From Clostridiales bacterium (GTDB lineage: Bacteria; Bacillota; Clostridia; Christensenellales; UBA1242), in assembly GCA_003522085.1 (NCBI GenBank), contig DPGI01000005.1, positions 172,868 to 236,867 of the forward strand: DNA of 64,000 nucleotides. The letters run 5' to 3'. Position 1 is the stretch's first letter; each line of letters starts with the position of its first letter. Positions 10,343-58,904 of the stretch are shown here, piece by piece. Both the position numbers and the translations under genes were made by a program. The notes beneath the pieces are model-generated. The model saw only the letters and a program-made list of their open reading frames with translations, did no database searches and was not told the origin of the DNA.

Positions 10343-11575
10343 TTAAACTATACAAATTGGCACATTTTTTGATGATAAATCGCGCTGTGAAATTAACAAA
10401 TTTTTGGCATTTTTTGATAACTTTGTGCCTAAATGTTCAATCGCTTTTTCGTCGCAATTTTTTATTACTAAAACTTCTTTATAAATGCTGCCGTTAAAGA
10501 TTTTAAGAGAATTTATGTTGTCATATTCGTTTAACACAAAACCGCTGTTTGCCTTTAAAATAAAGCGTTTTCTTAGGTTGAGATATTCCTTTTCACTTTT
10601 AATGTCGTTTTTTCCTTTAAGCCATGCCATATAGATTTTTTCAGGCAAAATATAATTGATTTTGTTGTTAATATCTTTAAATTTTGTGTCAATTTTTACA
10701 TCAAAAATTTCACAAGTTTTTCTCTTGCTTTGAGCAAAATATGCTTCAATTTCTTCCATAGAATTTAGCATAAATTTTTCACTTCCAAAATTATAAAAAT
10801 AATGCTGTTTTTGATATGGTTTTAATCGCAAATTACAACTTATATTAACTTTTGGATAGGCGCAATTTTCAACGCCATCAACACAAGAAAAACAGAATTT
10901 ATTGGCTTTTGATGAGAAGTTGAAAAACATTCTTTCGCCCGAAAATAAGTGCGTTATTTTTATTGCGTGAAGCAGTTTTTCAAAGGTATAATATCCCTTT
11001 TCAAGTGGCAAATTTATTTCAAAATTCACCGATTTTTCGCTGTTTGTTGTGTTTAAAAATTCAAGATATATTCCTCTTCCCGACAACACGCATTCGCGCA
11101 CAAAACAGTTGATTCCGTTGTCTTCTAAAAAGCCATCATAAAAATAATTGCAAAGAGTTTGTTTTGCTTTTTTGCCGTTAAACATGATATAATTTTCACT
11201 AGCAACTGGATTATAATTTGAGGACGAGCGATAGTTTACGTTTAATTTTTTCAGATTTTCATCGTCAGAAATAATGAAATTTAGTTTTCTGCTGTGTGGT
11301 TGAGAGTGGGTGAAAACAAGGTTAAAATCGAGTTTTTTCTGCGCATTATAAAAGCATTTTGCCATGACAGGCGAAAGTCTGTTTTCATAAAAAAACACCG
11401 GTTTTGTAAGGTCTATTCCTTGGTTGATTAGCGTTTCAAAATTCACGTTTTCGGCATTTTTTGGCGCTTGAAATTTGACGCGACTGCATATTAAATTTGT
11501 CATATTGAAAATGTAATCTTTCTTTTTCATATCTTCATTTTTGACAATATTAAATTTACTAAACAAAAAAAACAA
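10343..11575 (-). CDS. hypothetical protein (Asn/Lys/Phe-rich, no recognisable domain)
   Basis: 410-aa ORF. An alternative start is the ATG at 11530. Confidence 0.5.
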   Translation of the reverse strand: MFFLFSKFNIVKNEDMKKKDYIFNMTNLICSRVKFQAPKNAENVNFETLINQGIDLTKPVFFYENRLSPVMAKCFYNAQKKLDFNLVFTHSQPHSRKLNFIISDDENLKKLNVNYRSSSNYNPVASENYIMFNGKKAKQTLCNYFYDGFLEDNGINCFVRECVLSGRGIYLEFLNTTNSEKSVNFEINLPLEKGYYTFEKLLHAIKITHLFSGERMFFNFSSKANKFCFSCVDGVENCAYPKVNISCNLRLKPYQKQHYFYNFGSEKFMLNSMEEIEAYFAQSKRKTCEIFDVKIDTKFKDINNKINYILPEKIYMAWLKGKNDIKSEKEYLNLRKRFILKANSGFVLNEYDNINSLKIFNGSIYKEVLVIKNCDEKAIEHLGTKLSKNAKNLLISQRDLSSKNVPICIV

Positions 11576-11596
11576 ACAACCGAAATTGTTTGCTTT

Positions 11597-11939
11597 TTGT
11601 CAGCTAAACTATAAGCCGAGTTCTGTATTTTGTGGTCATCTATCTAGACCTTTTGTCGCCAAAAGGTTCAAGCGGCGCTTTTGAAAGACACGTAAGACGC
11701 GATAACTGTCTTTGCTTGGCCTTGCATCGGGTGGGGTTTACAGAGCAAGCCATGTTACCACAGCCCCGGTGAGCTCTTACCTCGCCTTTCCATCCTTACC
11801 CTTGCGGGCGGTTTATTTCTGTTGCACTATCCTTAAAGTCACCTTCACCAGCCGTTAACTGGCACCCTGTCTTATGATGCTCGGACTTTCCTCACTTTGC
11901 TTTTTATCAGCAAACTGCGACCACATGTTTAACTGACTT
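11597..11939 (-). ncRNA. rnpB: RNase P RNA, bacterial type A
   Basis: Minus strand carries GAGGAAAGTCCGAGC, AGGGTGCCAGTTAACGGCTGG, GGTAAGAGCTCACC, GTAAACCCCACCCG and ACAGAACTCGGCTTA. P1 pairs GTCAGTTAAAC with GTTTAGCTGAC. Confidence 0.92.
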
Positions 11940-11973: not shown

Positions 11974-13329
11974 TTAACTTACTGTAAAGAGAACTTTTGA
12001 CGAGTTTTTCTTGTCAGTTGAAAAGCCTTGAATGACTCCGTCTTGTGAAATTTTAAGTGAAACGCCATACTTTGCAAGGTCTTTTGCTGCGGCAAGACGA
12101 CCACCGCCAAGCGAGCCTGCTTCGATTTTTAAAATTGCGCCAGCTGCGATGATTGTTCCGTCAAAATCAATGATGGTTGCTCCGTCCATGGCGATGATTT
12201 CTTCTCTGAGTTTGCGGTCAATTTCGTGGAACTTTCTGCCGTCGATAATTTGTTTAAGACATTCTGATTTATAGCATGAATTTTTAACCATAAATTCTTC
12301 ATAATCAGGCAAATAGAAACTGCGTGTGCGCTCAGCTGATGACAGATTGTAAAGTTTTTCGCTTTCTTCAAGTTCTATGCGCTTTTTAATTTCATAATAT
12401 CGTTCTGATAGAATGTCGCGAGCGTCAATGTGTGCGAGCGCTCCTTCCGCCATGTCACGTTTGAGATAGACTATTATTCCGCCCGAATAGTTGAACGAAC
12501 AATCAATCGCGGAAAGATAGATTGCACGGCGAATTTCTTTAAGCGAATGCGATGTGCGATATGAAAGAAGCTGAATAATCTCTTCGTGAGAATAAACGTT
12601 CCACTTCCCGCGACGCTTTGCATACATGAGCGTGTGATTTTTAAAAATCAAAAGATCGCCATTTTCTGTAAGAGCTATGCCAACCTTTTTTTCTCCGCAA
12701 TAACGGGCTACGTAGTTGAATTCATATGGCGCGATTGACGAATAGTTACGCACTTTTGCAAGAGAAACATATCCGGTTAAATAGCCGTCTTTGTTAAATT
12801 CGACAAAACTGTGCTTACCGTCAGAAAGAAGAGCGAAAAAGTCGCTTGAAAGCATGTCGGAATAATGCAAAGGTCCAACTTCGTTGTTGTCAGTAATATT
12901 TAAAATGATTCCAAAATTGATTTTTTTCCCTTCGTATGTGCGGGCACTCCAATTACTAAGCGCGCCAACAAGCCCGAGCATAGTTGAAGAAGCAGACGAT
13001 GCAACACTATCGCAGACTGCTTTTTCGATGGCTTTTTCGAGAAGCCCCATTTCATACGATGGGTCAAGTCCTTCAAAATTGCTAACATCATTTATTTCTT
13101 TTAAAATGTTTTTTAATAGGTTTATTTCAAATGGCTGATATGCTCGACCACGTTTAATCACAAGTCTGTATTCAGCTGTTTTGCAAGGTTTTATCAATAG
13201 CGAATTTTGTTTTCCAAGAGCAACTTCTGCTTCACGAGCGTTTGACTCCTCTTCCCCAACCAGTTGCGAACCGGTCAACAGCGGAAGGATCAATTTTCTA
13301 ACAACGAAGTAAAATTTCTCTTTTTCCAA
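11974..13329 (-). CDS. DisA_N (diadenylate cyclase)-like domain protein, RHR motif absent
   Basis: TTG start. The C-terminus DGATIIDFDGTIIAAGAIL...GGGRLAAA aligns to DAC motifs DGAxII and GTRHRAA. About 270 aa at the N-terminus are unknown. Confidence 0.6.
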   Translation of the reverse strand: MEKEKFYFVVRKLILPLLTGSQLVGEEESNAREAEVALGKQNSLLIKPCKTAEYRLVIKRGRAYQPFEINLLKNILKEINDVSNFEGLDPSYEMGLLEKAIEKAVCDSVASSASSTMLGLVGALSNWSARTYEGKKINFGIILNITDNNEVGPLHYSDMLSSDFFALLSDGKHSFVEFNKDGYLTGYVSLAKVRNYSSIAPYEFNYVARYCGEKKVGIALTENGDLLIFKNHTLMYAKRRGKWNVYSHEEIIQLLSYRTSHSLKEIRRAIYLSAIDCSFNYSGGIIVYLKRDMAEGALAHIDARDILSERYYEIKKRIELEESEKLYNLSSAERTRSFYLPDYEEFMVKNSCYKSECLKQIIDGRKFHEIDRKLREEIIAMDGATIIDFDGTIIAAGAILKIEAGSLGGGRLAAAKDLAKYGVSLKISQDGVIQGFSTDKKNSSKVLFTVS

Positions 13330-13488: not shown

Positions 13489-14202
13489 TTAATTTTTGTC
13501 GTAATAATTATGAGATAGGTCGTCTTTTATAAGTGATAACGCTTTTGCTTCAATTCTCGAAACATAACTGCGGGAAATGCCAAGTTTTTCAGCCAACTCT
13601 TTTTGTGTAAAAACATCTTCGCCATTAAGGCCATAACGCTTATTTAATATTTCTCTTTCACGCGGAGAAAGACGTTTGAGTGCCGTCTCGTTGATTTTTT
13701 CCATTAAAAAACTTGAAGAAACTGCATCTTCAACTTCGTCTTCGTCACTCTCTAAAATATCCATTAAAAGCACGTCGTTGCCGTCTTTGTCACATGCGAA
13801 TTTGCTGTTTAGAGATAAGCAATCTTTGTGTTTTTTGTTCATTCTAATCAGCATTAAAATTTCGTTGTCAATACATTTTGACGCATATGTGGCAAGTGCT
13901 GCCCCCTTTTCATATTTAAAACTGTCAATCGCTTTGATAAGCCCTATTGCACCAACAGAAATTAAATCGTCCGCTTCTATCGAAACCGTGCCAGCATATT
14001 TTTTCACGATATGCGAAACAAGTCTTAAATTGTGATTTATCAGTTCGCGGCGAGCCTGCATGTCTCCTTTTTCATGATAAGCCACCAAAAGTTCTCGCTC
14101 TTTTTCTTTTGATAATGGTTTTGGAAAACCTTCTGAGTTGTTAAGAAATGCAGTAAAACACCTTAACTTACTCAAAAATATCGGCAAACTTTCAAACAAC
14201 AT
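13489..14202 (-). CDS. sigK: RNA polymerase sporulation sigma factor SigK (pro-form)
   Basis: The pro-sequence then GFPKPLSKEKE and HNLRLVSHIVKKY resemble B. subtilis SigK. GAGGTG RBS. The gene is uninterrupted. The track ORF extension to 14295 runs into the repeat and was rejected. Confidence 0.85.
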   Translation of the reverse strand: MLFESLPIFLSKLRCFTAFLNNSEGFPKPLSKEKERELLVAYHEKGDMQARRELINHNLRLVSHIVKKYAGTVSIEADDLISVGAIGLIKAIDSFKYEKGAALATYASKCIDNEILMLIRMNKKHKDCLSLNSKFACDKDGNDVLLMDILESDEDEVEDAVSSSFLMEKINETALKRLSPREREILNKRYGLNGEDVFTQKELAEKLGISRSYVSRIEAKALSLIKDDLSHNYYDKN

Positions 14203-14221
14203 GCACCTCGCTTTGAAGTAA

Positions 14222-14250
14222 TGTATATGTCGTATTTTGTGGAAATTTGC
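14222..14250 (-). promoter_or_regulatory. sigma-E type promoter candidate for sigK
   Basis: GCAAATT-14 nt-CATATACA compared with the consensus ZHATAXX-14-CATACAHT (6/7 and 6/8 matches). Confidence 0.35.
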
Positions 14251-14259
14251 ATGTCCAAT

Positions 14260-14484
14260 ATCGTGGGGACAACCAAATTTTGAACGCGGACACACCCGCT
14301 AAACGCGGCCAACCGCTAAAATTCGGTTTTCCACCACGTGCCCCTTTCCCGCAACTTGACGCGCCCCGGGCGCTTTCGGCGTTGCATCAGGGCGCGCTAA
14401 ACTGTTTTCGCCGAGCAAAGCTCTTCCCCGAAAAAGTTTATCATCGCTTATCTTTATGGATAAATAAGATAGACAAGATGTCTA
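14260..14484 (+). repeat. GC-rich modular repeat, unit A1 (starts with 20-mer ATCGTGGGGACAACCAAATT)
   Basis: Near-identical to 26255..26480 and 26481..26705. Confidence 0.95.
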
Positions 14485-14504
14485 ATCGTGGGGACAACCA
14501 AATT
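14485..14504 (+). repeat. terminal copy of the 20-mer
   Basis: Exact ATCGTGGGGACAACCAAATT. Confidence 0.95.
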
Positions 14505-14507
14505 AAG

Positions 14508-14689
14508 GTCACCTGCGGTGACATGATGGCTGACTACGTCGGCATGATAGCACTCAAAGTGTGCATGATGGTCGCTAACGCGACATGATGGCGCACTGCG
14601 TGCGCATGATAGTCACTTATGTGACATGATAGTTGACTACGTCAACATGATGGTGTTCTTCGCACACATGATGGCACGCTGGCGCGTGC
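14508..14689 (+). repeat. array of 9 short hairpins separated by ATGATR linkers (period ~21 nt)
   Basis: Each unit is a G...C-closed 5-6 bp stem with a 3-4 nt loop. Stems differ by compensatory changes. T:G wobbles occur only on the + strand. Confidence 0.9.
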
Positions 14690-14692
14690 ATA

Positions 14693-14763
14693 GCGGTTGG
14701 ATTTAAAAAGCAGTTTGATTTTAAAAACGTAGTTGAATTTTAAAAAGCGATTAGATTGTAAAG
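14693..14763 (+). repeat. four ~18-nt A/T-rich direct repeats (GCRGTTKGATTTTAAAAA)
   Basis: GCGGTTGGATTTAAAAA, GCAGTTTGATTTTAAAAA, GTAGTTGAATTTTAAAAA, GCGATTAGATTGTAAAG. Confidence 0.7.
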
Positions 14764-14827
14764 TATGCAACATTAAATAAAAAAGCGGCGGGCAAAGGCT
14801 CGTCGCTTAGGTCATTAAATTTATTTT

Positions 14828-15724
14828 CTAAAACATTTCGTCTATAAAATTTTTTGCATCGAATTTTTCGATATCATCAATTCCCTCGCCTGTTCCTATA
14901 AACACAACTGGTTTTTGAAGTTCTTTTTCAATAGCAAAAACTACTCCGCCTTTCGCTGTTCCGTCAAGTTTGGTGAGCACAATTCCGTCGATTGGCACAA
15001 ACTCGTTGAATGCAGTGATTTGCGAAAGTGCATTTTGTCCTGTTGTTGCATCTAACACTATGAGCGACAATTTTTGCGCTTCCGGATACTCGCGGTCGAT
15101 GACTTTGTTTATTTTTTTAAGTTCTTCCATCAGATTTGTTTTTGTGTGCAATCTTCCCGCAGTGTCGACAATAAGCACATCCGTGTTTTTCGCTTTTGCA
15201 GATGCAATTCCGTCAAACACAACGGCGGCAGCGTCAGCACCTTCCGCGTGTTTAATTATGCGTGTTTTGCTGCGATCCGCCCAAAGCGAAAGTTGCTCGC
15301 TGGCGGCGGCTCTGAAAGTATCGCCGGCAACCAAAGTTACTGACTTTTTTTCATTTGAAAAGAACTTTGCAAGTTTGCCGATTGTTGTGGTTTTACCCAC
15401 ACCATTTACGCCAATTACTGTGATTACAAGCGGATAAGTAAATTCGATTTTTGGCGCACTGTCAAGACTTTCGGCAAGTATACTTTTAAGCGCTTTTTTA
15501 ACTTCATCCGCTGTGCGAATCTTGTTTTTGCGAGCGTAAACGCGAAGATCGTCGACGATTTCCATTGCTGTGCGAACGCCCATGTCGCAAGAAATCAAAA
15601 TATCAGTTAAATCATCATAAAAATCATCGTCAAGTTCGCCATGACTGAGCAAAGAATCAAGTTTGCGCGCAAATGCTTCACGCGTTTTTCTGAGTGCTGC
15701 GGCAATTTTTTTAAAAAATCCCAT
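14828..15724 (-). CDS. ftsY: signal recognition particle receptor FtsY
   Basis: SRP GTPase motifs GVNGVGKTTT, DTAGR, TKLDG. Confidence 0.95.
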   Translation of the reverse strand: MGFFKKIAAALRKTREAFARKLDSLLSHGELDDDFYDDLTDILISCDMGVRTAMEIVDDLRVYARKNKIRTADEVKKALKSILAESLDSAPKIEFTYPLVITVIGVNGVGKTTTIGKLAKFFSNEKKSVTLVAGDTFRAAASEQLSLWADRSKTRIIKHAEGADAAAVVFDGIASAKAKNTDVLIVDTAGRLHTKTNLMEELKKINKVIDREYPEAQKLSLIVLDATTGQNALSQITAFNEFVPIDGIVLTKLDGTAKGGVVFAIEKELQKPVVFIGTGEGIDDIEKFDAKNFIDEMF

Positions 15725-23840: not shown

Positions 23841-24764
23841 TTGAAAAAATTTAACTTTTTTATCACTATTTTGTTGATTGTTTTGGTTGTTTTGATTGCT
23901 TTAAATAGCAAAGTCTTTATCTCTGCTGCACTAAACGGAATTTCTGCTTGGGCTTTCAACGTTTTGCCATGCATCTTTCCTTTTATGATTATAACAAAAA
24001 TCATAATATCGATGGGACAAGTTGAAAAGTTTTGCAAGCCATTTTCGCGACCTTTTTTAAAACTTTATGGGACAAGCGGCAGCAGCGCATATGTATTTTT
24101 TATGAGCATTTTGGCGGGCTATCCGGTTGGGTCGCAAATGGTTGCTTCGCTTTATGAAAGCGGAAAAATTGACAGGACTCAGGCTTACAGAATGTCGAGT
24201 TTTTGTTCAAATTCGGGGCCAATGTTTATAATTGGAACAGTGGGCTGCTTGCTGCTGAAAAACGCGGCGGCTGGCGGAATTTTGTTTGCATCGCATGTGC
24301 TTAGTGCTCTTTTAAATGGGCTTGTTTACAGAAAAATTCGGGCACGTGGAAACACGCAGAATGCAGAAGAAAATGTGCAGGTTTTGCCCGCTTCGCAATC
24401 GTTTGGCGACATGGTTGGCACGTCAGTTCAAGCGATTTTGAACGTTGGCGGAATCATTTGCTTTTTCTTTATAATAATCGAAGCACTCTCTCCTTTTTTG
24501 GGACTTTTGCCCGGCGTAGTTAGGCCGCTTGCGGAAGGACTTATTGAACTTACGCGCGGCTGCATTGACGCAAGCAGTTTGCCAACTTTTGCGGCGAGCG
24601 TGATGTGCAGTTTTATGATTGGATTTGGCGGATTTTCGACGATATTGCAATCGATGACGATGTTAAAAAAACTGAGAATGCCGGTGTGGCTGTTCTCAGT
24701 TATGAAATTTAGTCAAGGACTAATTTCGGCAGGAATTACTGCTGTTTTAATGCTTGCTATTTAG
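23841..24764 (+). CDS. nucleoside-recognition-domain membrane protein, YlbJ-like (sporulation integral membrane protein)
   Basis: TTG start after GAGG. Polytopic. Contains motif ILAGYPVGSQMVASLY. Confidence 0.5.
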   Translation: MKKFNFFITILLIVLVVLIALNSKVFISAALNGISAWAFNVLPCIFPFMIITKIIISMGQVEKFCKPFSRPFLKLYGTSGSSAYVFFMSILAGYPVGSQMVASLYESGKIDRTQAYRMSSFCSNSGPMFIIGTVGCLLLKNAAAGGILFASHVLSALLNGLVYRKIRARGNTQNAEENVQVLPASQSFGDMVGTSVQAILNVGGIICFFFIIIEALSPFLGLLPGVVRPLAEGLIELTRGCIDASSLPTFAASVMCSFMIGFGGFSTILQSMTMLKKLRMPVWLFSVMKFSQGLISAGITAVLMLAI

Positions 24765-25578
24765 TTTCGTGTTTAATTTGTGCTTGAACGATGCTTTCAA
24801 GTTCTCTCATCAAATATTTGAGTGAGCGAATGCCTTTTGTTGCATATTTAAGCCCGCAAACAAGGCCATTTACAAGGTCAAAATCTTGTTCAAGACAAGC
24901 GATAATTACGCAGTGAAGCATAAGATTTACATCGTCAGTTTGGGCTGTTTCTTTTTCTTCGCAAAGGCGCTCGATCATTTCAATCGCTGCGTCTTTTGCT
25001 GCGATAAATGTAAGGCAAGCGCCAGTTGGGTCTTTTAAATAATAAGACGATCTTTCGATTGGGAAAGGAACAATTTTTAAACGCTCTTCTGGTGGAAGGG
25101 CTTCGATTTGTTCTTCTGTCATTGGCTCGGCTTCTTCTTCAACTGTTTCTGATTCAGGCTCTTGAAGTCCAAACGCATCGATAAGCAAGTTTTTGAATGG
25201 AAGGATTACACTTTCCATAAACTTTTGAGAATCTAAACGGTTGTTTTCATCGGCGAAATATGAAGTGATAAGTTCGTCATATTTAATCTTGCCACTTCCT
25301 ATATCGGCAAGAAGGCAAAATACGAGCGCCAAAACTTTGTATTCTTCTTTTGGCATAACAAAAATTTTCTTCCCTGTTGAATCTTTTGTAAAAGCGCGGT
25401 CAAATTCTTTGGCTTTGTTGAATGAATTCATGCATTCTGAAAGAAGTTCGTATACTTCTGGACATTCGGCGATTGCTTCTAAAATTTTGTTGATTTTTTG
25501 GTCTGCAAACAACATTTTTGTTGTTGTAAGATCGTCACATAATGAAATTAAGTTTTTGATTTGATTTTCGTTTTCCAT
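24757..25578 (-). CDS. hypothetical protein
   Basis: 273 aa with AGAGGAATAG RBS. No domain recognised. Confidence 0.6.
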   Translation of the reverse strand: MENENQIKNLISLCDDLTTTKMLFADQKINKILEAIAECPEVYELLSECMNSFNKAKEFDRAFTKDSTGKKIFVMPKEEYKVLALVFCLLADIGSGKIKYDELITSYFADENNRLDSQKFMESVILPFKNLLIDAFGLQEPESETVEEEAEPMTEEQIEALPPEERLKIVPFPIERSSYYLKDPTGACLTFIAAKDAAIEMIERLCEEKETAQTDDVNLMLHCVIIACLEQDFDLVNGLVCGLKYATKGIRSLKYLMRELESIVQAQIKHETK

Positions 25579-25667: not shown

Positions 25668-26228
25668 ATGGACAATATCATTTCAGACGAAATCAACAAC
25701 GAAGAAAAGGTGCGACTTAAACTTACACTGTTATTTTTCATGGAAAAAATGGAAATTCCACTCACCAAAAACTCTATTCTCGACATCTGCTCGCTTGAAA
25801 ATGATTGGATTAGTTACATAGACTGCGTCGCTATCATTTCAGAACTTTGCGACAGCGGCTTTATCTATAAAACCGAAAACGCTGAAAATGACGAACTTTA
25901 TTCTATCACCTATTCCGGTCGCGAATGTTTAGCTCAACTTTACACCCGCGTGCCATATGAACGCCGCGAAAAAATGACCGAATATGTAAAGCAAAACAAA
26001 CTTTCAGTTAAGGCATCGCAAGAATACACTTCAAACTATGTAAAAAACGACGACGGCTCTTATACTGTTACTCTCAGAATTTATGAGCCAATGATTCCAA
26101 CCCCTATGTTTGAAATAAAAATTAAAGCACCTTCAAGACAAAGCGCAATCGAGGCTGACAAAAAATGGAAGCGCAATGCTCCAAGTGTTTATGAATATGT
26201 TTATGAAAATTTGGTTAATACCGACTAA
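25668..26228 (+). CDS. DUF4364-like (PadR-like winged helix) protein
   Basis: 186 aa. The N-terminal LKLTLLFFMEKMEIPLTKNSILDI pattern resembles DUF4364. The stop codon overlaps the first 20-mer repeat. Confidence 0.5.
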   Translation: MDNIISDEINNEEKVRLKLTLLFFMEKMEIPLTKNSILDICSLENDWISYIDCVAIISELCDSGFIYKTENAENDELYSITYSGRECLAQLYTRVPYERREKMTEYVKQNKLSVKASQEYTSNYVKNDDGSYTVTLRIYEPMIPTPMFEIKIKAPSRQSAIEADKKWKRNAPSVYEYVYENLVNTD

Positions 26229-26247
26229 TCGTGGGGACAACCAAATT
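26228..26247 (+). repeat. solo copy of the 20-mer
   Basis: Exact ATCGTGGGGACAACCAAATT. Begins on the last base of the preceding stop codon. Confidence 0.95.
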
Positions 26248-26254
26248 TTTTTAT

Positions 26255-26480
26255 ATCGTGGGGACAACCAAATTTTTTTACGCGGACACACCCGCTAGGC
26301 GCGGGCAACCGCTAAAATTCGGTTTTCCACCACGGACCCCTTTCCCGCAACTTGACGCGCCCCGGGCGCTTTCGGCGTTGCATCAGGGCGCGCTAAACTG
26401 TTTTCGCCGAGCAAAGCTCTTCCCCGAAAAAGTTTAACATCGCTTATCTTTATGGATAAATAAGATAGACAAGAAGACTT
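26255..26480 (+). repeat. GC-rich modular repeat, unit B1
   Basis: 226 nt. Starts with the 20-mer. Confidence 0.95.
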
Positions 26481-26705
26481 ATCGTGGGGACAACCAAATT
26501 TTTTTACGCGGACACACCCGCTAGCCGCGGGCAACCGCTAAAATTCGGTTTTCCACCACGGGCCCCTTTCCCGCAACTTGACGCGCCCCGGGCGCTTTCG
26601 GCGTTGCATCAGGGCGCGCTAAACTGTTTTCGCCGGACAAAGCCCTTCCCCGAAAAAGTTTAACATCGCACTTCTTATTGATAAATTAGATAGACAAGAA
26701 GACTT
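26481..26705 (+). repeat. GC-rich modular repeat, unit B2 (tandem)
   Basis: 225 nt. Differs from B1 by a few substitutions in the GC-rich core and a more diverged AT-rich 3' tail. Confidence 0.95.
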
Positions 26706-26725
26706 ATCGTGGGGACAACCAAATT
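26706..26725 (+). repeat. terminal copy of the 20-mer
   Basis: Exact copy, followed by AAG and the hairpin array, as at 14485. Confidence 0.95.
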
Positions 26726-26728
26726 AAG

Positions 26729-26827
26729 GTCACCTGCGGTGACATGATAGCACGCTGACGCGTGCATGATAGTCGCTGCGCAACATGATGGTTGACTGCG
26801 TCGACATGATGGTGCAACAAGTTGCGC
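26729..26827 (+). repeat. array of 5 short hairpins separated by ATGATR linkers
   Basis: GTCACC-TGC-GGTGAC, GCACGC-TGAC-GCGTGC, GTCGC-TGC-GCAAC, GTTGAC-TGC-GTCGAC, GTGCAA-CAAG-TTGCGC. Confidence 0.9.
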
Positions 26828-26866
26828 ATATTGTTGAAAAGAGCAAAAATTGCTACGAAAAAAAAA

Positions 26867-26889
26867 AGATTGAAATTCAATCTTTTTTA
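26867..26889 (+). terminator. rho-independent terminator closing the DUF4364-repeat transcript
   Basis: AGATTGAA-A-TTCAATCT followed by TTTTTT. An A-run precedes it, so it could act in both directions. Confidence 0.7.
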
Positions 26890-27056
26890 TTTAATTTTTA
26901 TTTAATTTTGTATTTTATTTTTAATTTTTTATTATTTAATTATTTATTTTTATTTTATTTTAATTATTTTTCGATTTATTTCGCAATTTATTTTATTATT
27001 TAATTAAAAACCCTTTTACTGCCTTTATTTTTCGGATATTTAATTAAACAATAAAT

Positions 27057-27994: not shown

Positions 27995-29110
27995 TTATAA
28001 GATGGTTAAGTCTTCTTTTGTGAGAGTTGTGTCTTTCAAGTATTCATCGTCAAGTTTATAGAATGTGTGCGATGCGTTTTCGAAAAGTTCAAACATGCGT
28101 TTTATGTTTTTATCGTTAAGTTTGTTTGCGTCAAACTGAATAAATCCTTTTTCGTCGCGGATGTATTCGCCTTTGTCGCCATGCATTATATAATCGTCTG
28201 TGCACCAGCCATCTTTGCCTTTCCAGAACAATTTTTCAACCAAATCTTGATAGGTTTTTGCGATTTTATTGTAGTTTGGATGTTTTTGCTTATTAAGCTT
28301 TATCATAATTAAATCATGTCTTTCAACATAAGTTTCGCAAAGTGTAAATATGCGGGAAATTTCGCTGATTTGTTCATCTTTTGAAAGACCTTTCCAATAA
28401 TCCTTGAATGTTTTTTCTTTTTCAGGCGCAGTAGGACGAACAGTCTCGCGTGGCTTCATCATCTCTTCTCTTGCCTTTCTTGCTGCTTCTTTGCGAGCGG
28501 ATTTTTCGGCGGCGATTGCTTCGCGCTTCGCTTGCTCTTCGGCCTGTGTCGCTTTGTGCATATGATATTGGAAATTTGGGCAAATTAGGCTCATTTCCAT
28601 TTGGATTTTAACTGGCAAATCATGTTGGACATAGCCATTTGTGAGTTTTTCCATAAGATATAAATCCACTTCGTTTTTGCGTTTGCAAATCTCTTCGGCT
28701 TCAATCAAAACAGCAAGCAGTTTTTTCATTTTTGCTGTGTCCCAAGAGTTTTGGTCGCGAAGTTCATTCAGCACGACATCGATGCTTTTTGCAAGGTCGC
28801 AATTTCTCTTTTTAGAATCTTGGAAATCCTTGTTAAAGCAGAATTTATGATTTGTTGATTCAATGTTGTATGCTTGGCTGACAGCGGTGAAAAGTTTGCC
28901 AAGTATTGTCAGATCTTCATAGATAACTTTGCGATATTTAAAAGCATTTGATTTATAGCGATTGTAAACCTCTTTATCATCTTCGGTCATTGCATTGATT
29001 TCTTCGTCAGTAATAATATCGTCTTCGATTTTTACGTCACCTTCTACTAATACTGGCACCAAATCTTCCTTTTTGCTGTTTTTGTCAAATTCGGGTCGAA
29101 CTATTGCCAT
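27995..29110 (-). CDS. hypothetical protein with central Ala/Glu/Lys-rich helix
   Basis: Start moved to MAIVRPEF (AAAGGAGAAAAA RBS). This removes the overlap with degV. Confidence 0.6.
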   Translation of the reverse strand: MAIVRPEFDKNSKKEDLVPVLVEGDVKIEDDIITDEEINAMTEDDKEVYNRYKSNAFKYRKVIYEDLTILGKLFTAVSQAYNIESTNHKFCFNKDFQDSKKRNCDLAKSIDVVLNELRDQNSWDTAKMKKLLAVLIEAEEICKRKNEVDLYLMEKLTNGYVQHDLPVKIQMEMSLICPNFQYHMHKATQAEEQAKREAIAAEKSARKEAARKAREEMMKPRETVRPTAPEKEKTFKDYWKGLSKDEQISEISRIFTLCETYVERHDLIMIKLNKQKHPNYNKIAKTYQDLVEKLFWKGKDGWCTDDYIMHGDKGEYIRDEKGFIQFDANKLNDKNIKRMFELFENASHTFYKLDDEYLKDTTLTKEDLTIL

Positions 29111-29226
29111 TTTTTCTCCTTTGTGATTTTGTTTATGCTGATTAACAAAACAAATAAACTTGATTATTATAAAATAAATAAGAGGCAAAGTCAATATGCC
29201 TCTTAAAAGTTTGTTGTGAATATTTT

Positions 29227-30081
29227 TTAATTTACATCGTTTATATACAAAATTCCAAGCGTGTTTTTGCCGCAATGTGATGTGATTACACTGCCTGCCA
29301 AGTTTTCTTCGACGTGCTCGAATATGTTTTTTGATTTAACATATTCGACCACCATATCAACCAATTCTTGGCTCATGGCTGTGTGAGTGACAAAGCAAAA
29401 ATCTTTGCGTGGAGATGGATGCTTTTTCAAGATGCTGTCAACATATTTGATGAGCACGGATTTGAGTGGTCCGATTTCTTTGCCAGTGTTTATAAGGCTG
29501 CCGTCGACGACTTCAAGACGTGGCTTAATTTTTAATAGACCTGCGACCGAGAATGTAAAACGTGAACATCTGCCACCCTTGTAAAGATATTCAAGTTTGT
29601 CTAATGTGAATGATGTTTGAGTGTTTTGTGCTGATTTAGTCATTTCGCTGACAACTTCGTCAAGACTCTTTCCTGCCCTTGCTGCCACAGCACCGCTGAG
29701 TACTGTAAGACCTGTGCCAGATGAAAGTGCGCATGAATCGACAATTTTGACTTTGTCGCCAAGCCCAAGTTCTTCAACTGCACGGCAAGCGTTTGAATAA
29801 CATACTGAAAGTTTTGAACCAATTCCGCAATGGACAATTGCGTCGCAAGATGTGAGAAGTGACGAGAAATATTCTTTAAAATCTTCGATGCTGCGAGCCG
29901 AAGTTTTTGGCAAAATTTTTGACTCATCTACAAATTTATAAATATCGTCTGGTGAAATGTTTACGCCATCAAAATATTCATTGTCGCCAAGTGTTACAAT
30001 AAGCGGAAAAACAGATATGCCAAATTCATCGACAAGGTGTTTTGGAAGGTCTGCTGTTGAATCGGTTGAAATTTTTATCAT
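29227..30081 (-). CDS. DegV family fatty-acid-binding protein
   Basis: MIKISTDSTADLP N-terminus. 284 aa. Confidence 0.88.
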   Translation of the reverse strand: MIKISTDSTADLPKHLVDEFGISVFPLIVTLGDNEYFDGVNISPDDIYKFVDESKILPKTSARSIEDFKEYFSSLLTSCDAIVHCGIGSKLSVCYSNACRAVEELGLGDKVKIVDSCALSSGTGLTVLSGAVAARAGKSLDEVVSEMTKSAQNTQTSFTLDKLEYLYKGGRCSRFTFSVAGLLKIKPRLEVVDGSLINTGKEIGPLKSVLIKYVDSILKKHPSPRKDFCFVTHTAMSQELVDMVVEYVKSKNIFEHVEENLAGSVITSHCGKNTLGILYINDVN

Positions 30082-31889: not shown

Positions 31890-31977
31890 TGGCGCAGAGG
31901 TCGGGATTCGAACCCGAGGTAGCTTTCACTACACACGCTTTCCAAGCGTGCACATTCGACCGCTCTGACACCTCTGC
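31890..31977 (-). tRNA. tRNA-Ser (anticodon GGA), CCA encoded
   Basis: Cloverleaf read by hand. Acceptor GCAGAGG/CCTCTGC. Anticodon arm CACGC-TTGGAAA-GCGTG. Long variable arm GTAG-TGAAAG-CTAC. T arm TCGGG-TTCGAAT-CCCGA. Confidence 0.9.
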
Positions 31978-32185: not shown

Positions 32186-32638
32186 TTATTTTGTTATGCT
32201 GTATAACACGATGTCTTCATTTGGCTCGATTACGTTTTCTGCAATCAAATCGGCATAAATTGAAAGGTCATCAATTTTGTCTCTGATTGTGTACGACGAT
32301 TTGCGAAGCAAATTAAGGCGCGATCCAACTGGCTTATAGACATTGGAAAGCTTTGTCAAAATGTTGAGAGCATTATTGGCAGTTTGCTCGAAATGAACAG
32401 CCTCTAACGCAAGTTTGTCAAGAACTCTTTCGTCTTCTAACTCTGGAAATATTACGTGGCAATTAACAAGCAACGCTTTTTTAAAAAATTCTAAATCTTC
32501 TTGCATTGCTTTGTCGTCAAAGTGATATAAATCAAACTCTGCTGCGCAGATTTCCCTGAACGAATCTGTGCGATCTTTAATATCGCGAGTTTCGTTTTTA
32601 TAATAAGTTTTGTTGTTTATAATTCTGTCTCTTGCCAT
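32186..32638 (-). CDS. hypothetical protein
   Basis: 150 aa from MARDRII (AGGAGAAAAA RBS). Confidence 0.6.
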   Translation of the reverse strand: MARDRIINNKTYYKNETRDIKDRTDSFREICAAEFDLYHFDDKAMQEDLEFFKKALLVNCHVIFPELEDERVLDKLALEAVHFEQTANNALNILTKLSNVYKPVGSRLNLLRKSSYTIRDKIDDLSIYADLIAENVIEPNEDIVLYSITK

Positions 32639-32685
32639 TGTTTTTCTCCTATGCACATTTTTAATTTAACATATATTTTGTCTTT

Positions 32686-55949: not shown

Positions 55950-58904
55950 TTATTCGTATTTGTCGCCAAATATCTGATAATACTCTTCAAGAGTTATATA
56001 AACGTTTCTTGGCTTTGCTCCGTCGGCGGCTGAAATGTAGCCCATTTCGGTCATTTGGTCGATGATTTTGCCGGCGCGTGGATAGCCGATTGAAAGACGA
56101 CGTTGAATCATTGAAGTTGACGCTTGTCCTGCATCTATACACATTTTGAGTGCTTCAGGAAGAAGTGGATCCATTCCCCCGCGTTCGTTGTCGCCACCAT
56201 TTGATGAGGTTTTTGGAGCGTTGTTGATTGCATCTTGAATGTCTTTATCAAACACTGGTTCGTTGTTGAGAGTAACATAATTTACTATGTCGGCGATTTC
56301 ACGAGTTGTTATAAAGCAACCTTGAACACGTTTTGGTGCTGCTGAATATTCTTGTGGAGCATAAAGCATATCACCATGTCCCAGCAACTTTTCGGCGCCC
56401 GGTTGTCCTAAAATTACAACTGAGTTTACATTGCTTGCAACTTTGAATGCGATGCGTGATGGGAAGTTTGCTTTGATGCCGCCTGTGACATATTCAGTTG
56501 TTGGATATTGTGTTGCCAAGATGATGTGAATACCGGCCGCTCTCGCCTTTTGTCCAAGACGAATAATTTTGTCTTCAACTTCTTTCTTGCCTTGCATGAT
56601 AAAGTCTGAAAATTCGTCGATGATGATTACGATGAAAGGCATTTTCTTTTTCTTGTAAGTCACAACGTCTGGGGTTGAGTTGTATTCATCGATGTCTCTT
56701 ACGCGCGCTTCACGAATAAGTCTGAAACGGCGCTCCATTTCGTCAACTGCCCATTGAAGCGCATTTGTCGCTTTTGTAAGATCAGAAATAACTTTTGGAA
56801 CTATAAGGTGTGGAATGCCTTCATATGGTGTAAATTCGACCTGTTTTGGGTCGATAAGCAGCAATTTGCAGTCGTCTGGCGATGATTTGTAAAGAAGTGA
56901 AATGATTATGCTGTTGAGCATTACACTCTTTCCTGAGCCAGTTGTCCCGGCGATTAAAAGGTGTGGCATTTTGTTGAGAGCACCAACCATAATTCTGCCA
57001 GTGATGTCCTTTCCTACGGCATATGTGAGTGGAGATTTTGCTGAATTGAATTCGTTTGAAATTAACACGTCTTTTAATGAAACTGTTGCGACTTTGTCGT
57101 TTGGAACTTCGATGCCGACAACGTTTCTGCCTGGAACTGGGGCTTCGATACGCACATCGCCGCCGTTTGCTTCAAGGGCAAGTGCGATGTCGCTTGAAAG
57201 GTTGAGAATCTTTTTAACGGTTACGCCGCTTGGCATTTCAAGTTCATATCTTGTAACTGCTGGGCCGATTACGACGTTTTGAACTTTTGCAGGCACGCCA
57301 AATTCTTCGAGTGTGTTTTCTAAGATTACAGTTTTTGTTTGAATGTCGTCGTCAAGGTCGCTCATGTCGGTTGAACGAGTTGTAACAAGGTCGATTGGAG
57401 GTTTTGTATAAGAATAAGGCTTGATAACCTCTGGCTTTTCTTCCTCTTCGCTGTTTGAGATGTTGTCAAAATCAACAAATTTTTTGTGGTCTGGAACGGC
57501 AAATTCGCCATCTCTAACAAGCCCACGATCGCTTTGGTTTGCTGATGTTGTGCGATCAGAGCGGTCAAAATTGTTGCGGTCATTGTCGCGCGAAAGTGCG
57601 TCACGGTCTGAGTGTGATAAATCGCGATTATCTCTGTCAAATGTCGAACGATCCGCCCCGCTTATGTCACGGTCGCTGTGACGATCAAAAGAACCACGGT
57701 CACGAGAAAAATCGCGCTCCATGCGGTCGCTCACGCGGTCTGACGAATGGTCTAACGCGCGGTCTGAATGATCAAAACTATTGTTGCGATCACGGTCGAA
57801 ATTGTTGCGATCACGGTCGAAGTCGCGGTCGCTGCCATTTTGTTTTTCTTGCGCTTTTTCAATATCTTCAGCTGATACTGAATCTGAGTGAGTGAAATTG
57901 CTCTCTTCCATAACTTCACGAATGATGTTGTCGGCTTCTGAAACAAGTTGTTCTGGCTGAGCGTCAGTGACAGCGTTTTGGCGCGAAGAATCAGAAATTA
58001 TAGGTGGAATTTCTTCTTTTTTAAGCGAATTTATGTTTCTGTCGATTTCGCTTTTTGATGGATTTGAAAGCCCATTTCTTGCATATGAGCGCGCTTCAGG
58101 TGAAAAGAATTTGCTGAAATCCGCTTGTGGTGGCGTAAGCAAATATGACTTTAATTCGTCGCCTTTAAGCGTTTTTGGATCGACTCTTTTAGGCTTTTCT
58201 TCTTCTTTTTGTGTGGTTGAAATTGGTTCAATCACTCCCCTGCGAGTAAGTCCGAGTTTTTGTCTGACTTCTTCTTCGCGTGAAAGTTTTTTCTCTATAT
58301 TGCCGCTCATAACGACGTTGACTTCTTCTTTTTGTTGAGTTTTTTCGTCGTTTTTAACTTCTTTGATTGAAAGTTTTACAGGCTCTTCGGCTGACGCTTT
58401 CTTTTTCATTGCGATGATTGCGTCGATGTAAAGAGCAAGTGATATTGCAAACAAAACTGAGAAAATAACAAAAGCCCAAACAAAATTGGTCAGATACAAA
58501 ATGCAGGTTGTAAAAAATCCGAAAACAATTCCGCCTGCTGTGTGCTTGCGAGTGTAATTTGATGCGAGATAATCGCCAAATGAACCCGATTTATTGCCCA
58601 CTATTGCAAGTTGAATGATGCAGACTAAAAAGAAAATTGTCAAATACAAAAATATCGCATATTTTTTGGACATTTTATATTTTTTGTTATTTAAAAGGGC
58701 TACACCGCCAAGCAGCATTGCCACAAACATAGGATATGCAAAATATCCAAATGCGCCAAGCAAAAAATTTTGCATAAAGCCAACCAAATTTGTCAGCAAA
58801 AAGAAAAATGCGAGGCATGAGAGTGCAATCATTGTAATTCCCACTATCTTTTTCGCATTTGAACTAACTTTTTTCTTATTTTTTCCTATCTTATATTCTG
58901 CCAT
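55950..58904 (-). CDS. ftsK: DNA translocase FtsK/SpoIIIE
   Basis: N-terminal TM helices, Asp/Arg-rich linker, motor domain GTTGSGKS, and a gamma winged helix at the C-terminus. Confidence 0.93.
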   Translation of the reverse strand: MAEYKIGKNKKKVSSNAKKIVGITMIALSCLAFFFLLTNLVGFMQNFLLGAFGYFAYPMFVAMLLGGVALLNNKKYKMSKKYAIFLYLTIFFLVCIIQLAIVGNKSGSFGDYLASNYTRKHTAGGIVFGFFTTCILYLTNFVWAFVIFSVLFAISLALYIDAIIAMKKKASAEEPVKLSIKEVKNDEKTQQKEEVNVVMSGNIEKKLSREEEVRQKLGLTRRGVIEPISTTQKEEEKPKRVDPKTLKGDELKSYLLTPPQADFSKFFSPEARSYARNGLSNPSKSEIDRNINSLKKEEIPPIISDSSRQNAVTDAQPEQLVSEADNIIREVMEESNFTHSDSVSAEDIEKAQEKQNGSDRDFDRDRNNFDRDRNNSFDHSDRALDHSSDRVSDRMERDFSRDRGSFDRHSDRDISGADRSTFDRDNRDLSHSDRDALSRDNDRNNFDRSDRTTSANQSDRGLVRDGEFAVPDHKKFVDFDNISNSEEEEKPEVIKPYSYTKPPIDLVTTRSTDMSDLDDDIQTKTVILENTLEEFGVPAKVQNVVIGPAVTRYELEMPSGVTVKKILNLSSDIALALEANGGDVRIEAPVPGRNVVGIEVPNDKVATVSLKDVLISNEFNSAKSPLTYAVGKDITGRIMVGALNKMPHLLIAGTTGSGKSVMLNSIIISLLYKSSPDDCKLLLIDPKQVEFTPYEGIPHLIVPKVISDLTKATNALQWAVDEMERRFRLIREARVRDIDEYNSTPDVVTYKKKKMPFIVIIIDEFSDFIMQGKKEVEDKIIRLGQKARAAGIHIILATQYPTTEYVTGGIKANFPSRIAFKVASNVNSVVILGQPGAEKLLGHGDMLYAPQEYSAAPKRVQGCFITTREIADIVNYVTLNNEPVFDKDIQDAINNAPKTSSNGGDNERGGMDPLLPEALKMCIDAGQASTSMIQRRLSIGYPRAGKIIDQMTEMGYISAADGAKPRNVYITLEEYYQIFGDKYE

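Follow-up and report, generated by a model that had tools for sequence, protein, structure and literature searches.

A strain-variable array of mini-hairpins with freely varying stems, in two spacers of a gut Clostridia species, resembles extragenic palindromic repeat clusters

Clusters of repetitive extragenic palindromes (REP) and bacterial interspersed mosaic elements (BIME) consist of palindromic units that are separated by linkers and located in extragenic DNA (PMC4550694). The BIME-2-type cluster REP325, for example, contains six repeats of two palindromic units with constant linkers (PMC4550694). We analyzed a 64-kb stretch of DNA from an uncultured human-gut Clostridia species (contig DPGI01000005.1, positions 172,868 to 236,867; referred to here as the window, with coordinates counted from its first nucleotide), in which an array of mini-hairpins lies on the + strand at 14508-14689. 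We regard the element to which this array belongs as an extragenic palindromic repeat cluster, its unusual part being mini-hairpins with free stems. We interpret the array, with moderate confidence, as a species-restricted minisatellite of extragenic palindromic units that is similar to BIME and BOX elements and acts as DNA.

The array at 14508-14689 (array 1) contains nine units of 13-16 nt, each closed by a G...C pair and lettered as types A-I (14508-22, 14529-43, 14550-64, 14571-84, 14591-605, 14612-25, 14632-46, 14653-67, and 14674-89). These are joined by eight 6-nt linkers, ATGATG or ATGATA, to give a period of 20-21 nt. The nine mini-hairpins are exactly as described in an initial sequence-only reading of this DNA. 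Six of the nine units form perfect G..C-closed hairpins, whereas 5000 composition-matched simulations averaged 0.27 and never exceeded 4; unit 2 has one T:G pair, and units 3 and 8 have one mismatch each. Seven of the nine are predicted to fold as proposed, with RNA energies of -2.9 to -9.3 kcal/mol and DNA energies of -1.3 to -6.7. The fold energy of the array as a whole is unexceptional (z = -1.7 and -1.5) and uninformative. The loops of array 1 are TGC, TAC, AAA, TAAC, TTAT, TTC, and TGGC, and loops of the form T..C are found in nearly all of 50 distinct units that we compiled. The extended linker CATGATRG occurs 13 times in the window, compared to 2.3 expected, with eight of these in array 1, four at 26743-26812 in a second array (array 2), and one elsewhere. 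Units consisting of a hairpin followed by ATGATR were detected on the + strand only (7 vs 0) and are confined to the arrays within the window. No reading frame could run through units of 20, 21, and 22 nt, as had been noted at the outset, and a coding hypothesis (a heptad MMxxxxx peptide) was dropped on account of the variable unit number and of frame disruption by units of 19, 20, and 22 nt. A pattern between neighboring arms, with the 3' arm of unit n resembling the 5' arm of unit n+1 (A-B, D-E, F-G, and H-I), was not significant by permutation (P=0.10).

Array 1 forms one part of a composite element, which has a second full copy in the window at 26228-26890. Although the array itself had been described correctly, this second copy, the direct repeat (DR), the 205-nt module, and the variation between strains in unit number and order had all been overlooked. 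The composite contains, in order, a DR, a 205-nt module present in 0-2 copies, a DR, AAG, the hairpin array, AT-rich tandem repeats, and a terminator. The DR is the 20-nt sequence ATCGTGGGGACAACCAAATT, for which the window contains six exact copies where none is expected. Locus 1 lies between ftsY, with smc before it, and the gene for a SigK-type sporulation sigma factor, all three being on the - strand. The stop codon at which locus 2 begins belongs to a DUF4364 gene, which is on the + strand and convergent with rnhA. To recover both spacers from other strains, we used exact-protein look-ups with the FtsY and DUF4364 proteins, which gave approximately 25 human-gut metagenome contigs or metagenome-assembled genomes of the same species. 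The allele of the window is denoted W, L-numbers are the labels of the other retrieved contigs, and J denotes a further unit type found in other strains.

Pairing within the stems was examined in an alignment of 28 distinct 15-nt units drawn from all alleles. Pairing is found for 91% of stem cells, compared to 65% in shuffles, none of 500 of which reached the observed value, and to 13-48% when the 3' partner was slid. Four of the six pairs change on both sides, and the outer G-C pair and the loop-closing inner C-G pair are fixed. These data bear out the earlier observation of covariation between the stems of different units. All of it is between paralogous unit types, with paired transitions apparent within families (GCTGAC/GTCAGC vs GTTGAC/GTCAAC; GTCAC/GTGAC vs GTCGC/GCGAC; GCACAC vs GCGCAC vs GCACGC). 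Between orthologous units we saw one-sided changes only and no compensated double changes.

Covariation in the stems, with conservation of the linker sequence from one unit type to the next, and predicted RNA hairpins that are stable (-2.9 to -9.3 kcal/mol) favor a functional RNA transcribed from the + strand. Such an RNA could be a 3' untranslated region (UTR) element or a small RNA arising from the AT-rich tail of the module, with the AUGAUR linkers serving as a multivalent scaffold, sponge, or processing substrate, or with the hairpin cluster serving as a terminator or exonuclease barrier. The sequence-only reading had also favored the + strand because the wobble pairs were all T:G. This restriction to T:G holds for the window allele and fails across the approximately 25 alleles, whose 50 distinct unit sequences contain 258 Watson-Crick pairs, 11 G:T pairs, 9 A:C pairs, and 10 other mismatches in their stem cells. 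The wobble pairs are thus without strand bias (11 vs 9), and the + strand argument is unsupported, since it was based on one allele and G:U-compatible variants are no commoner than those compatible with the - strand only. Perfect palindromes account for 22 of the 50 variants. The loops also lack known protein-binding motifs such as GGA, and the fold of the whole array is ordinary (z = -1.7), both of which weigh against an RNA function.

Constraint upon the array was determined from seven strains with identical FtsY proteins. Segregating sites make up 9/58 positions in stems (15.5%), 3/16 in loops (18.8%), and 4/25 in linkers (16%), compared to 28/299 third codon positions (9.4%) and 1/598 first and second positions in ftsY. 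Similarly, pairwise diversity (pi) is 0.051 for units A-E and 0.033 for ftsY third positions. Because polymorphism in stems, loops, and linkers equals or exceeds that of the third positions of ftsY, no purifying selection on the array is detectable within the species. The ATGATR linker, which had been reported as invariant, is so in the window allele but is polymorphic in other strains, where the variants ATGAAGA, ATTAAGA, ATGACG, ATGGTG, ATGTAA, GTGATA, GAGATA, ATTATG, AGGATG, and ATGATT are found. That stems and linkers match or exceed the polymorphism of synonymous sites is a further point against the RNA.

Hairpin arrays are present in every sampled strain at both loci. When hairpin number was compared between strains, a comparison that the sequence-only reading had called for, we found 5, 8, 9, 11, or 12 units at locus 1 and 5, 9, or 13 units at locus 2. 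Unit order also differs, with A-B-C-D-E-F-G-H-I, A-B-J-B-C-D-E-F-G-H-I, and A-B-C-J-B-J-H-I among the alleles. The suspected higher-order duplication is plausible, with A-B-C-D found again as a super-unit at locus 2. The presence of arrays in all sampled strains can be counted in favor of a functional RNA, whereas the apparent freedom of unit number and order counts against it. The module varies as well, each locus having 0, 1, or 2 copies depending upon the strain, and its loss always leaves one DR. It is absent in L121, L122, L124, L126-129, and L286, where one DR stays, and in one strain neither locus has it (L286 and L259, which are the same scaffold). The copy number of the AT-rich repeat at locus 1 is variable, the repeat being shorter in L123 and L124 and longer in L271 and L274. 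Tandem periods of 27, 226, ~21, ~84, and 18-38 nt, with tandem repeats called by Tandem Repeats Finder (TRF), co-occur in this region, and the five together indicate that it is prone to slippage.

A potential concern is that the array represents a chance run of palindromes or an artifact of metagenome assembly. The alleles do come from short-read metagenome assemblies, and several contigs break within the arrays. However, six perfect hairpins were found where 0.27 are expected, the second locus has the same grammar, and the same array was recovered from independent samples and assemblers. Identical alleles were obtained in this way for six pairs (W=L125, L128=L129, L271=L274, W=L264, L259=L265, and L263=L267), which argues against an assembly artifact, and we regard this explanation as highly improbable. 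As markers, the two loci sharply distinguish strains of this uncultured human-gut Clostridia species, and they often break short-read assemblies.

The orthologous spacers of related species indicate that the element is young. In relatives with FtsY at 85-86% identity, the ftsY-sigK spacer is 67-70 nt and contains neither DR nor array, and in relatives with DUF4364 at 88% and 84%, where 32 and 11 nt follow the gene, the element is absent. The nearest relative (FtsY 90% and DUF4364 93%, on the same contig) has at locus 1 a DR-like sequence and one GTCGC...GCGAC hairpin, and at locus 2 an exact DR core and the start of module-like sequence, where the contigs break. No array was seen in this relative, its contigs being broken at locus 2; three of them end just past the DR and may have their own repeats there. 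DR or DR-like sequences with remnants of D-type stems (GTCGC...GCGAC; ..CGATGTCGCTTAAC..) are found in its contigs L250 (3397-3611) and L275-L279 (after 2561). A lineage with FtsY at 97% has the module and a 12-unit array, in which the linkers are more degenerate. Judged from these sequences, the element is confined to one species and its nearest relative, and the arrays appear to have expanded within this species. The absence of the array from the orthologous spacers of close relatives, along with polymorphism at or above the synonymous level in stems, loops, and linkers, contradicts the suggestion of a conserved RNA gene.

A scan of a genome collection for three linkers at the array spacing yielded, among the matches listed, Gly/Met-rich coding sequences or tandem repeats of identical units, and none with variable stems. 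In a metagenome scan with a 16-mer of the DR, nearly all of the matches listed were due to chance, and among those listed the full DR was found only in contigs of the same species. Scans of viral contigs with the DR, the A-B junction, and a module arm gave nothing but one chance match inside a coding region, and blastn of the element against phage and plasmid collections gave no match. At the gathering threshold, Rfam models matched only RNase P and tRNA in the window, and a search of 14150-14850 at E<=10 returned only noise. The linker pattern also matched non-coding tandem repeats in unrelated genomes, L099 (~850-1000), L069 (~460-600), and L009 (at the contig end), where an identical small hairpin is repeated with CATGATA or CATGATG (for example, GAACCTTGCGGTTCC x8 and GCCGCGAAGCGGCGTGCC x6); these repeats were probably selected by the linker-pattern search itself.

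These data suggest a model based on processes that act upon DNA. The spacers that hold the composite, ftsY|sigK and that of the convergent pair DUF4364|rnhA, are located at the 3' ends of genes and are probably non-essential. Units may be gained, lost, and reordered through slipped-strand mispairing or unequal exchange, with the 8-nt CATGATRG linker as the microhomology, and exchange at this sequence would also homogenize the linker. The two loci may swap sequence by gene conversion, as suggested by unit types that they have in common and by DRs that are identical. Template switching is known to make quasipalindromes more perfect (PMC7202029), and the complementarity of the arms could be kept by a templated quasipalindrome correction at replication or by weak selection for a hairpin or cruciform. 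Such hairpin-dependent correction or selection would result in covariation at the level of paralogues without a strand-specific RNA function. A cellular role, if any, would be generic and similar to that of REP/BIME, such as a block to read-through or to 3' exonucleases, or the binding of a nucleoid protein. The element is species-restricted and probably non-essential, and known DNA-level processes can account for it. If the array does act as DNA in this manner, it would be an unusually clean natural case in which pairing but not sequence is kept, apparently without detectable purifying selection within the species. It would also call for caution in covariation-based discovery of non-coding RNA, since paralogous palindromes would mimic RNA covariation through DNA-level processes.

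Several observations weigh against a purely DNA-level minisatellite. Every strain keeps at least five units at both loci, and the first unit (A) is retained in all alleles. The terminal unit is kept except in two 5-unit alleles of locus 1, and is kept in every complete array of locus 2. All units have a single orientation in common. The commonest variant of each unit type is a perfect palindrome, and this, like the covariation of four of the six pairs, also fits selection for a hairpin in RNA or single-stranded DNA (ssDNA). The greater uniformity of the linker compared to the loops between unit types is poorly explained by the model, and the same is true of the closing G-C and inner C-G pairs that never vary and of the minimum of five units per strain. 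Array 2 is probably transcribed, given that a stop codon precedes it and a terminator follows. Finally, the diversity estimates come from 7-10 metagenome assemblies and ~100 aligned columns, and gene conversion between the loci could inflate the values.

The structure of the composite bears upon the alternatives. At locus 1, the first DR (14260-14279, + strand; identified by exact-copy and inverted-repeat searches) also serves as the 5' arm of the 20-bp outer stem of the module. The module itself (14280-14484, + strand) is a GC-rich structured sequence of 205 nt with an AT-rich 3' tail, whose presence varies by strain. The second DR (14485-14504, + strand) is followed by AAG at 14505-14507 and then by the array. 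Directly after the array, at 14692-14762 on the + strand, TRF identified ~4 copies of the AT-rich 18-19-nt tandem repeat AGCNNTTNGATTTTAAAA, which can also be described as a 38-nt super-unit. The composite ends in a terminator-like hairpin, GCGGCGGGC-AAAG-GCTCGTCGC, flanked by an A-run and a T-run (14785-14806); this was inferred by reading, the scan having made no call. From its sequence and position, the hairpin is likely to be the ftsY terminator on the - strand, and it would also stop a + strand transcript of the element.

At locus 2, two DR copies (26228-47 and 26255-74) lie in a perfect 27-nt tandem duplication at 26228-26274 (+ strand; TRF), the first of these overlapping the DUF4364 stop codon. 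Two tandem units with a period of 226 nt and 95% identity follow at 26275-26705 (+ strand; TRF and nhmmer), with module copy 1 at 26275-26480, a DR at 26481-26500, and module copy 2 at 26501-26705. The last of the four DRs of this locus (26706-26725, + strand) is followed by AAG and then by array 2 (26729-26827, + strand), which contains five ATGATR-joined units (26729-43, 26750-65, 26772-84, 26791-805, and 26812-27). A bidirectional terminator-like hairpin at 26860-26888, consisting of an A-run, GATTG-AAATT-CAATC, and a T-run, was inferred by reading and falls below the GC threshold of the scan. AT-rich tandem repeats with periods of 7, 11, 12, and 42 (26883-27006; TRF) overlap the hairpin end and extend towards rnhA.

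The module is predicted to be structured (fold z-score -3.6). Its eight distinct copies align to a consensus fold of 73 pairs, in which two pairs are compensatory, both of them in local hairpins with 3-nt loops. No module copies beyond those known were found in the window by nhmmer, and a protein search with a stop-free open reading frame (ORF) spanning the module found only itself and one spurious 64-aa ORF at locus 2, with no further copies. The AT-rich tail contains a weak promoter-like site, TTAACA-16-TAAATT, directed into the DR and array. It also contains the motif TATGGATAA, which differs by one mismatch from a DnaA box.

These features give the RNA interpretation additional support. 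The promoter-like site, although weak, could drive a transcript; a terminator-like hairpin stands at the end of both copies; and at locus 2 the element runs from the DUF4364 stop codon to such a hairpin, the position of a 3' UTR. Hairpin clusters have furthermore been proposed as intrinsic terminators (PMC8355165). However, a promoter scan at locus 1 found nothing, most alleles lack the module that bears the promoter-like site, and the element is absent in close relatives. When these points are combined with the lack of strand bias and of detectable constraint, a functional + strand RNA seems unlikely to us.

At locus 1, the 3' half of the DR is complementary to sequence by the sigK promoter region (AAATTTGCATGTCC/GGACAACCAAATTT, 14243-14256), with a score that was reached in 57 of 3000 random 60-mers. 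At locus 2 (26208-26247), AACCAAATTT pairs with AAATTTGGTT in the last DUF4364 codons, with 10 nt exact and a score reached by 0 of 3000 random 60-mers; the match at locus 1 is the weaker one. The complementarity at both loci might mean that the DR arose by folding back, that it took part in selecting the target, or that an alternative hairpin can form. Another complement of 10 nt, between 14309-18 and 14691-700, was rejected as being about what chance would give for a region of this size (by a rough estimate), and it is absent at locus 2.

Complementarity of the DR to the left flank at both loci is also among the features that would be consistent with an enzymatic origin. According to this alternative, the unit (a hairpin followed by ATGAT^R) is an ssDNA substrate of a structure-specific nuclease or recombinase whose gene lies outside the window, for example an HUH/Y1 enzyme of the REP-associated tyrosine transposase (RAYT) or IS200/IS605 kind. 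Cleavage and rejoining at the linker would excise, duplicate, and shuffle units, with a related site-specific reaction moving the DR and module. The grammar matches that of HUH substrates, in which a hairpin is preserved structurally and the short single-stranded motif beside it is preserved in sequence. The rearrangements between strains fall at unit boundaries, and gain or loss of the module is bounded exactly by the 20-nt repeat. Both copies have the same orientation, and nearly all genes of the region are on the - strand. In addition, CATGATR resembles nick or target sites such as CTTGATA (pC194/phiX174 Rep) and TTGAT (ISDra2). Against this, the linker is polymorphic, the stems vary more than those of known HUH hairpins, which are sequence-conserved within a genome, and slippage or unequal recombination can explain all of the rearrangements seen. 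The element is known at two loci only, which give no sign of genome-wide spread, and the 64-kb window encodes no transposase, relaxase, integrase, or reverse transcriptase, nor any Cas protein. We accordingly view an ssDNA substrate as rather unlikely. A broader proposal would treat the units as substrates of a structure-specific single-strand nuclease, recombinase, or RNA-binding factor, with enzymatic shuffling, and the DR-bounded 226-nt module as a very small non-coding cassette with a 20-nt integration site, the two together representing a new hairpin-array mobile or diversifying system in gut Clostridia; this we find more doubtful still. If either the HUH or the RNA-scaffold alternative were true, the array would give a mobile or regulatory system with a new hairpin grammar, in which the closing G-C and loop-closing C-G pairs are fixed, the inner pairs are free, and units are joined by an ATGATR linker.

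Other features of the window lie outside the composite. RNase P RNA of bacterial class A (284 bits) is encoded on the - strand at 11596-11936, 2.3 kb from array 1. A tRNA-Ser(GGA) at 31890-31977, also on the - strand, follows closely after the ORF 32186-32656 of that strand. The sequence ATTGTTGCGATCACGGTCGAA, a 21-nt x2 tandem repeat without mismatches at 57780-57821, is located inside an ORF of the FtsK/SpoIIIE family (55950-58904, - strand) and would be an in-frame duplication of 7 amino acids. Four - strand ORFs of 273-451 aa (10343-11575, 11974-13329, 24757-25578, and 27995-29275) have no Pfam match, and an NCBIfam scan of the ORFs 11974-13329, 24757-25578, and 27995-29275 also gave no match. 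The 451-aa ORF by sigK is conserved at that position in all relatives examined.

Comparison with known systems agrees with the initial view that the array does not match CRISPR or Csr-type sponges, and that its grammar differs from those of REP/BIME and BOX. A CRISPR array, with identical repeats of 21-48 nt, unique spacers of similar length, and cas genes or a leader close by, is ruled out because conservation is limited to 6-8 nt, the variable parts are a small vocabulary of palindromes, and the window contains no cas gene. Membership in an Rfam family (OLE, HEARO, STAXI, CsrB/RsmZ, ToxI, or ssDNA-type motifs) is ruled out by the lack of a covariance-model match at the element, and a Csr/Rsm sponge by the lack of repeated GGA in the loops or the ATGATR linker. 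A type III antitoxin of the ToxI kind is ruled out because the units are 20-22 nt and non-identical, compared to near-identical units of ~34-36 nt just ahead of a gene for an endoribonuclease toxin, and the neighbors are ftsY, sigK, DUF4364, and rnhA. Integron attC sites (imperfect inverted repeats of 57-141 nt, with R''/R' core sites RYYYAAC/GTTRRRY and intI) are ruled out since reading of the DR and module revealed no such cores and no integrase is encoded in the window.

Systems with a partial likeness differ in informative ways. Substrates of HUH/Y1 enzymes (IS200/IS605 ends and REP-RAYT) share a structural hairpin next to a short conserved single-stranded motif, but those known consist of one hairpin or a pair, conserved in sequence, rather than arrays of 5-13 different stems, and no gene for such an enzyme is present in the window. 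Hairpin-cluster intrinsic terminators (PMC8355165) likewise place several close hairpins after a stop codon, as at locus 2. These clusters are mostly of two hairpins, with larger ones being exponentially rarer, and have no repeated linker and no reported strain variation. Variable number tandem repeats (VNTRs) or minisatellites of the mycobacterial interspersed repetitive unit (MIRU) type resemble the arrays in having head-to-tail units that vary between strains in number (5-12 at locus 1 and 5-13 at locus 2) and order, with flanking units conserved and internal ones variable. Units of ordinary VNTRs, however, are not individually palindromic and do not have compensated stem differences. The pneumococcal BOX element (boxA-boxB(n)-boxC), along with modular repeats and miniature inverted-repeat transposable elements, shares a strain-variable middle module, predicted structure, an intergenic location, and the lack of a transposase. 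BOX modules are by description 45-59 nt and sequence-conserved, unlike the mini-hairpin array with its 21-nt periodicity and separate 226-nt module, and the two would not be expected to be related in sequence.

In its behavior, the element is most like REP/BIME clusters, modular repeats of the BOX type, and VNTRs. As with REP/BIME, it is extragenic and found at gene 3' ends or between convergent genes, lying between the ftsY terminator and the sigK promoter at locus 1 and between DUF4364 and rnhA at locus 2. Also in common are tandem short palindromic units, capable of forming hairpins or cruciforms, that are joined by short conserved linkers and could be transcribed within neighboring mRNAs. 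In contrast to REP/BIME, the units are 13-16 nt rather than ~35-40 nt, and they have a single orientation rather than alternating. There are about ten stems with a common head of G only, compared to one or two conserved consensus sequences with a GTAG-type head for REP. Copy number is tens to hundreds per genome for REP/BIME, and the 64 kb examined here contain two loci. The host belongs to a gut Clostridia lineage rather than to the proteobacteria, and no RAYT was seen among the ORFs of the window. Compared feature by feature, extragenic palindromic repeat clusters (REP/BIME and BOX) are the nearest known analogues of the array, which by the same comparison is not itself a member of REP/BIME.

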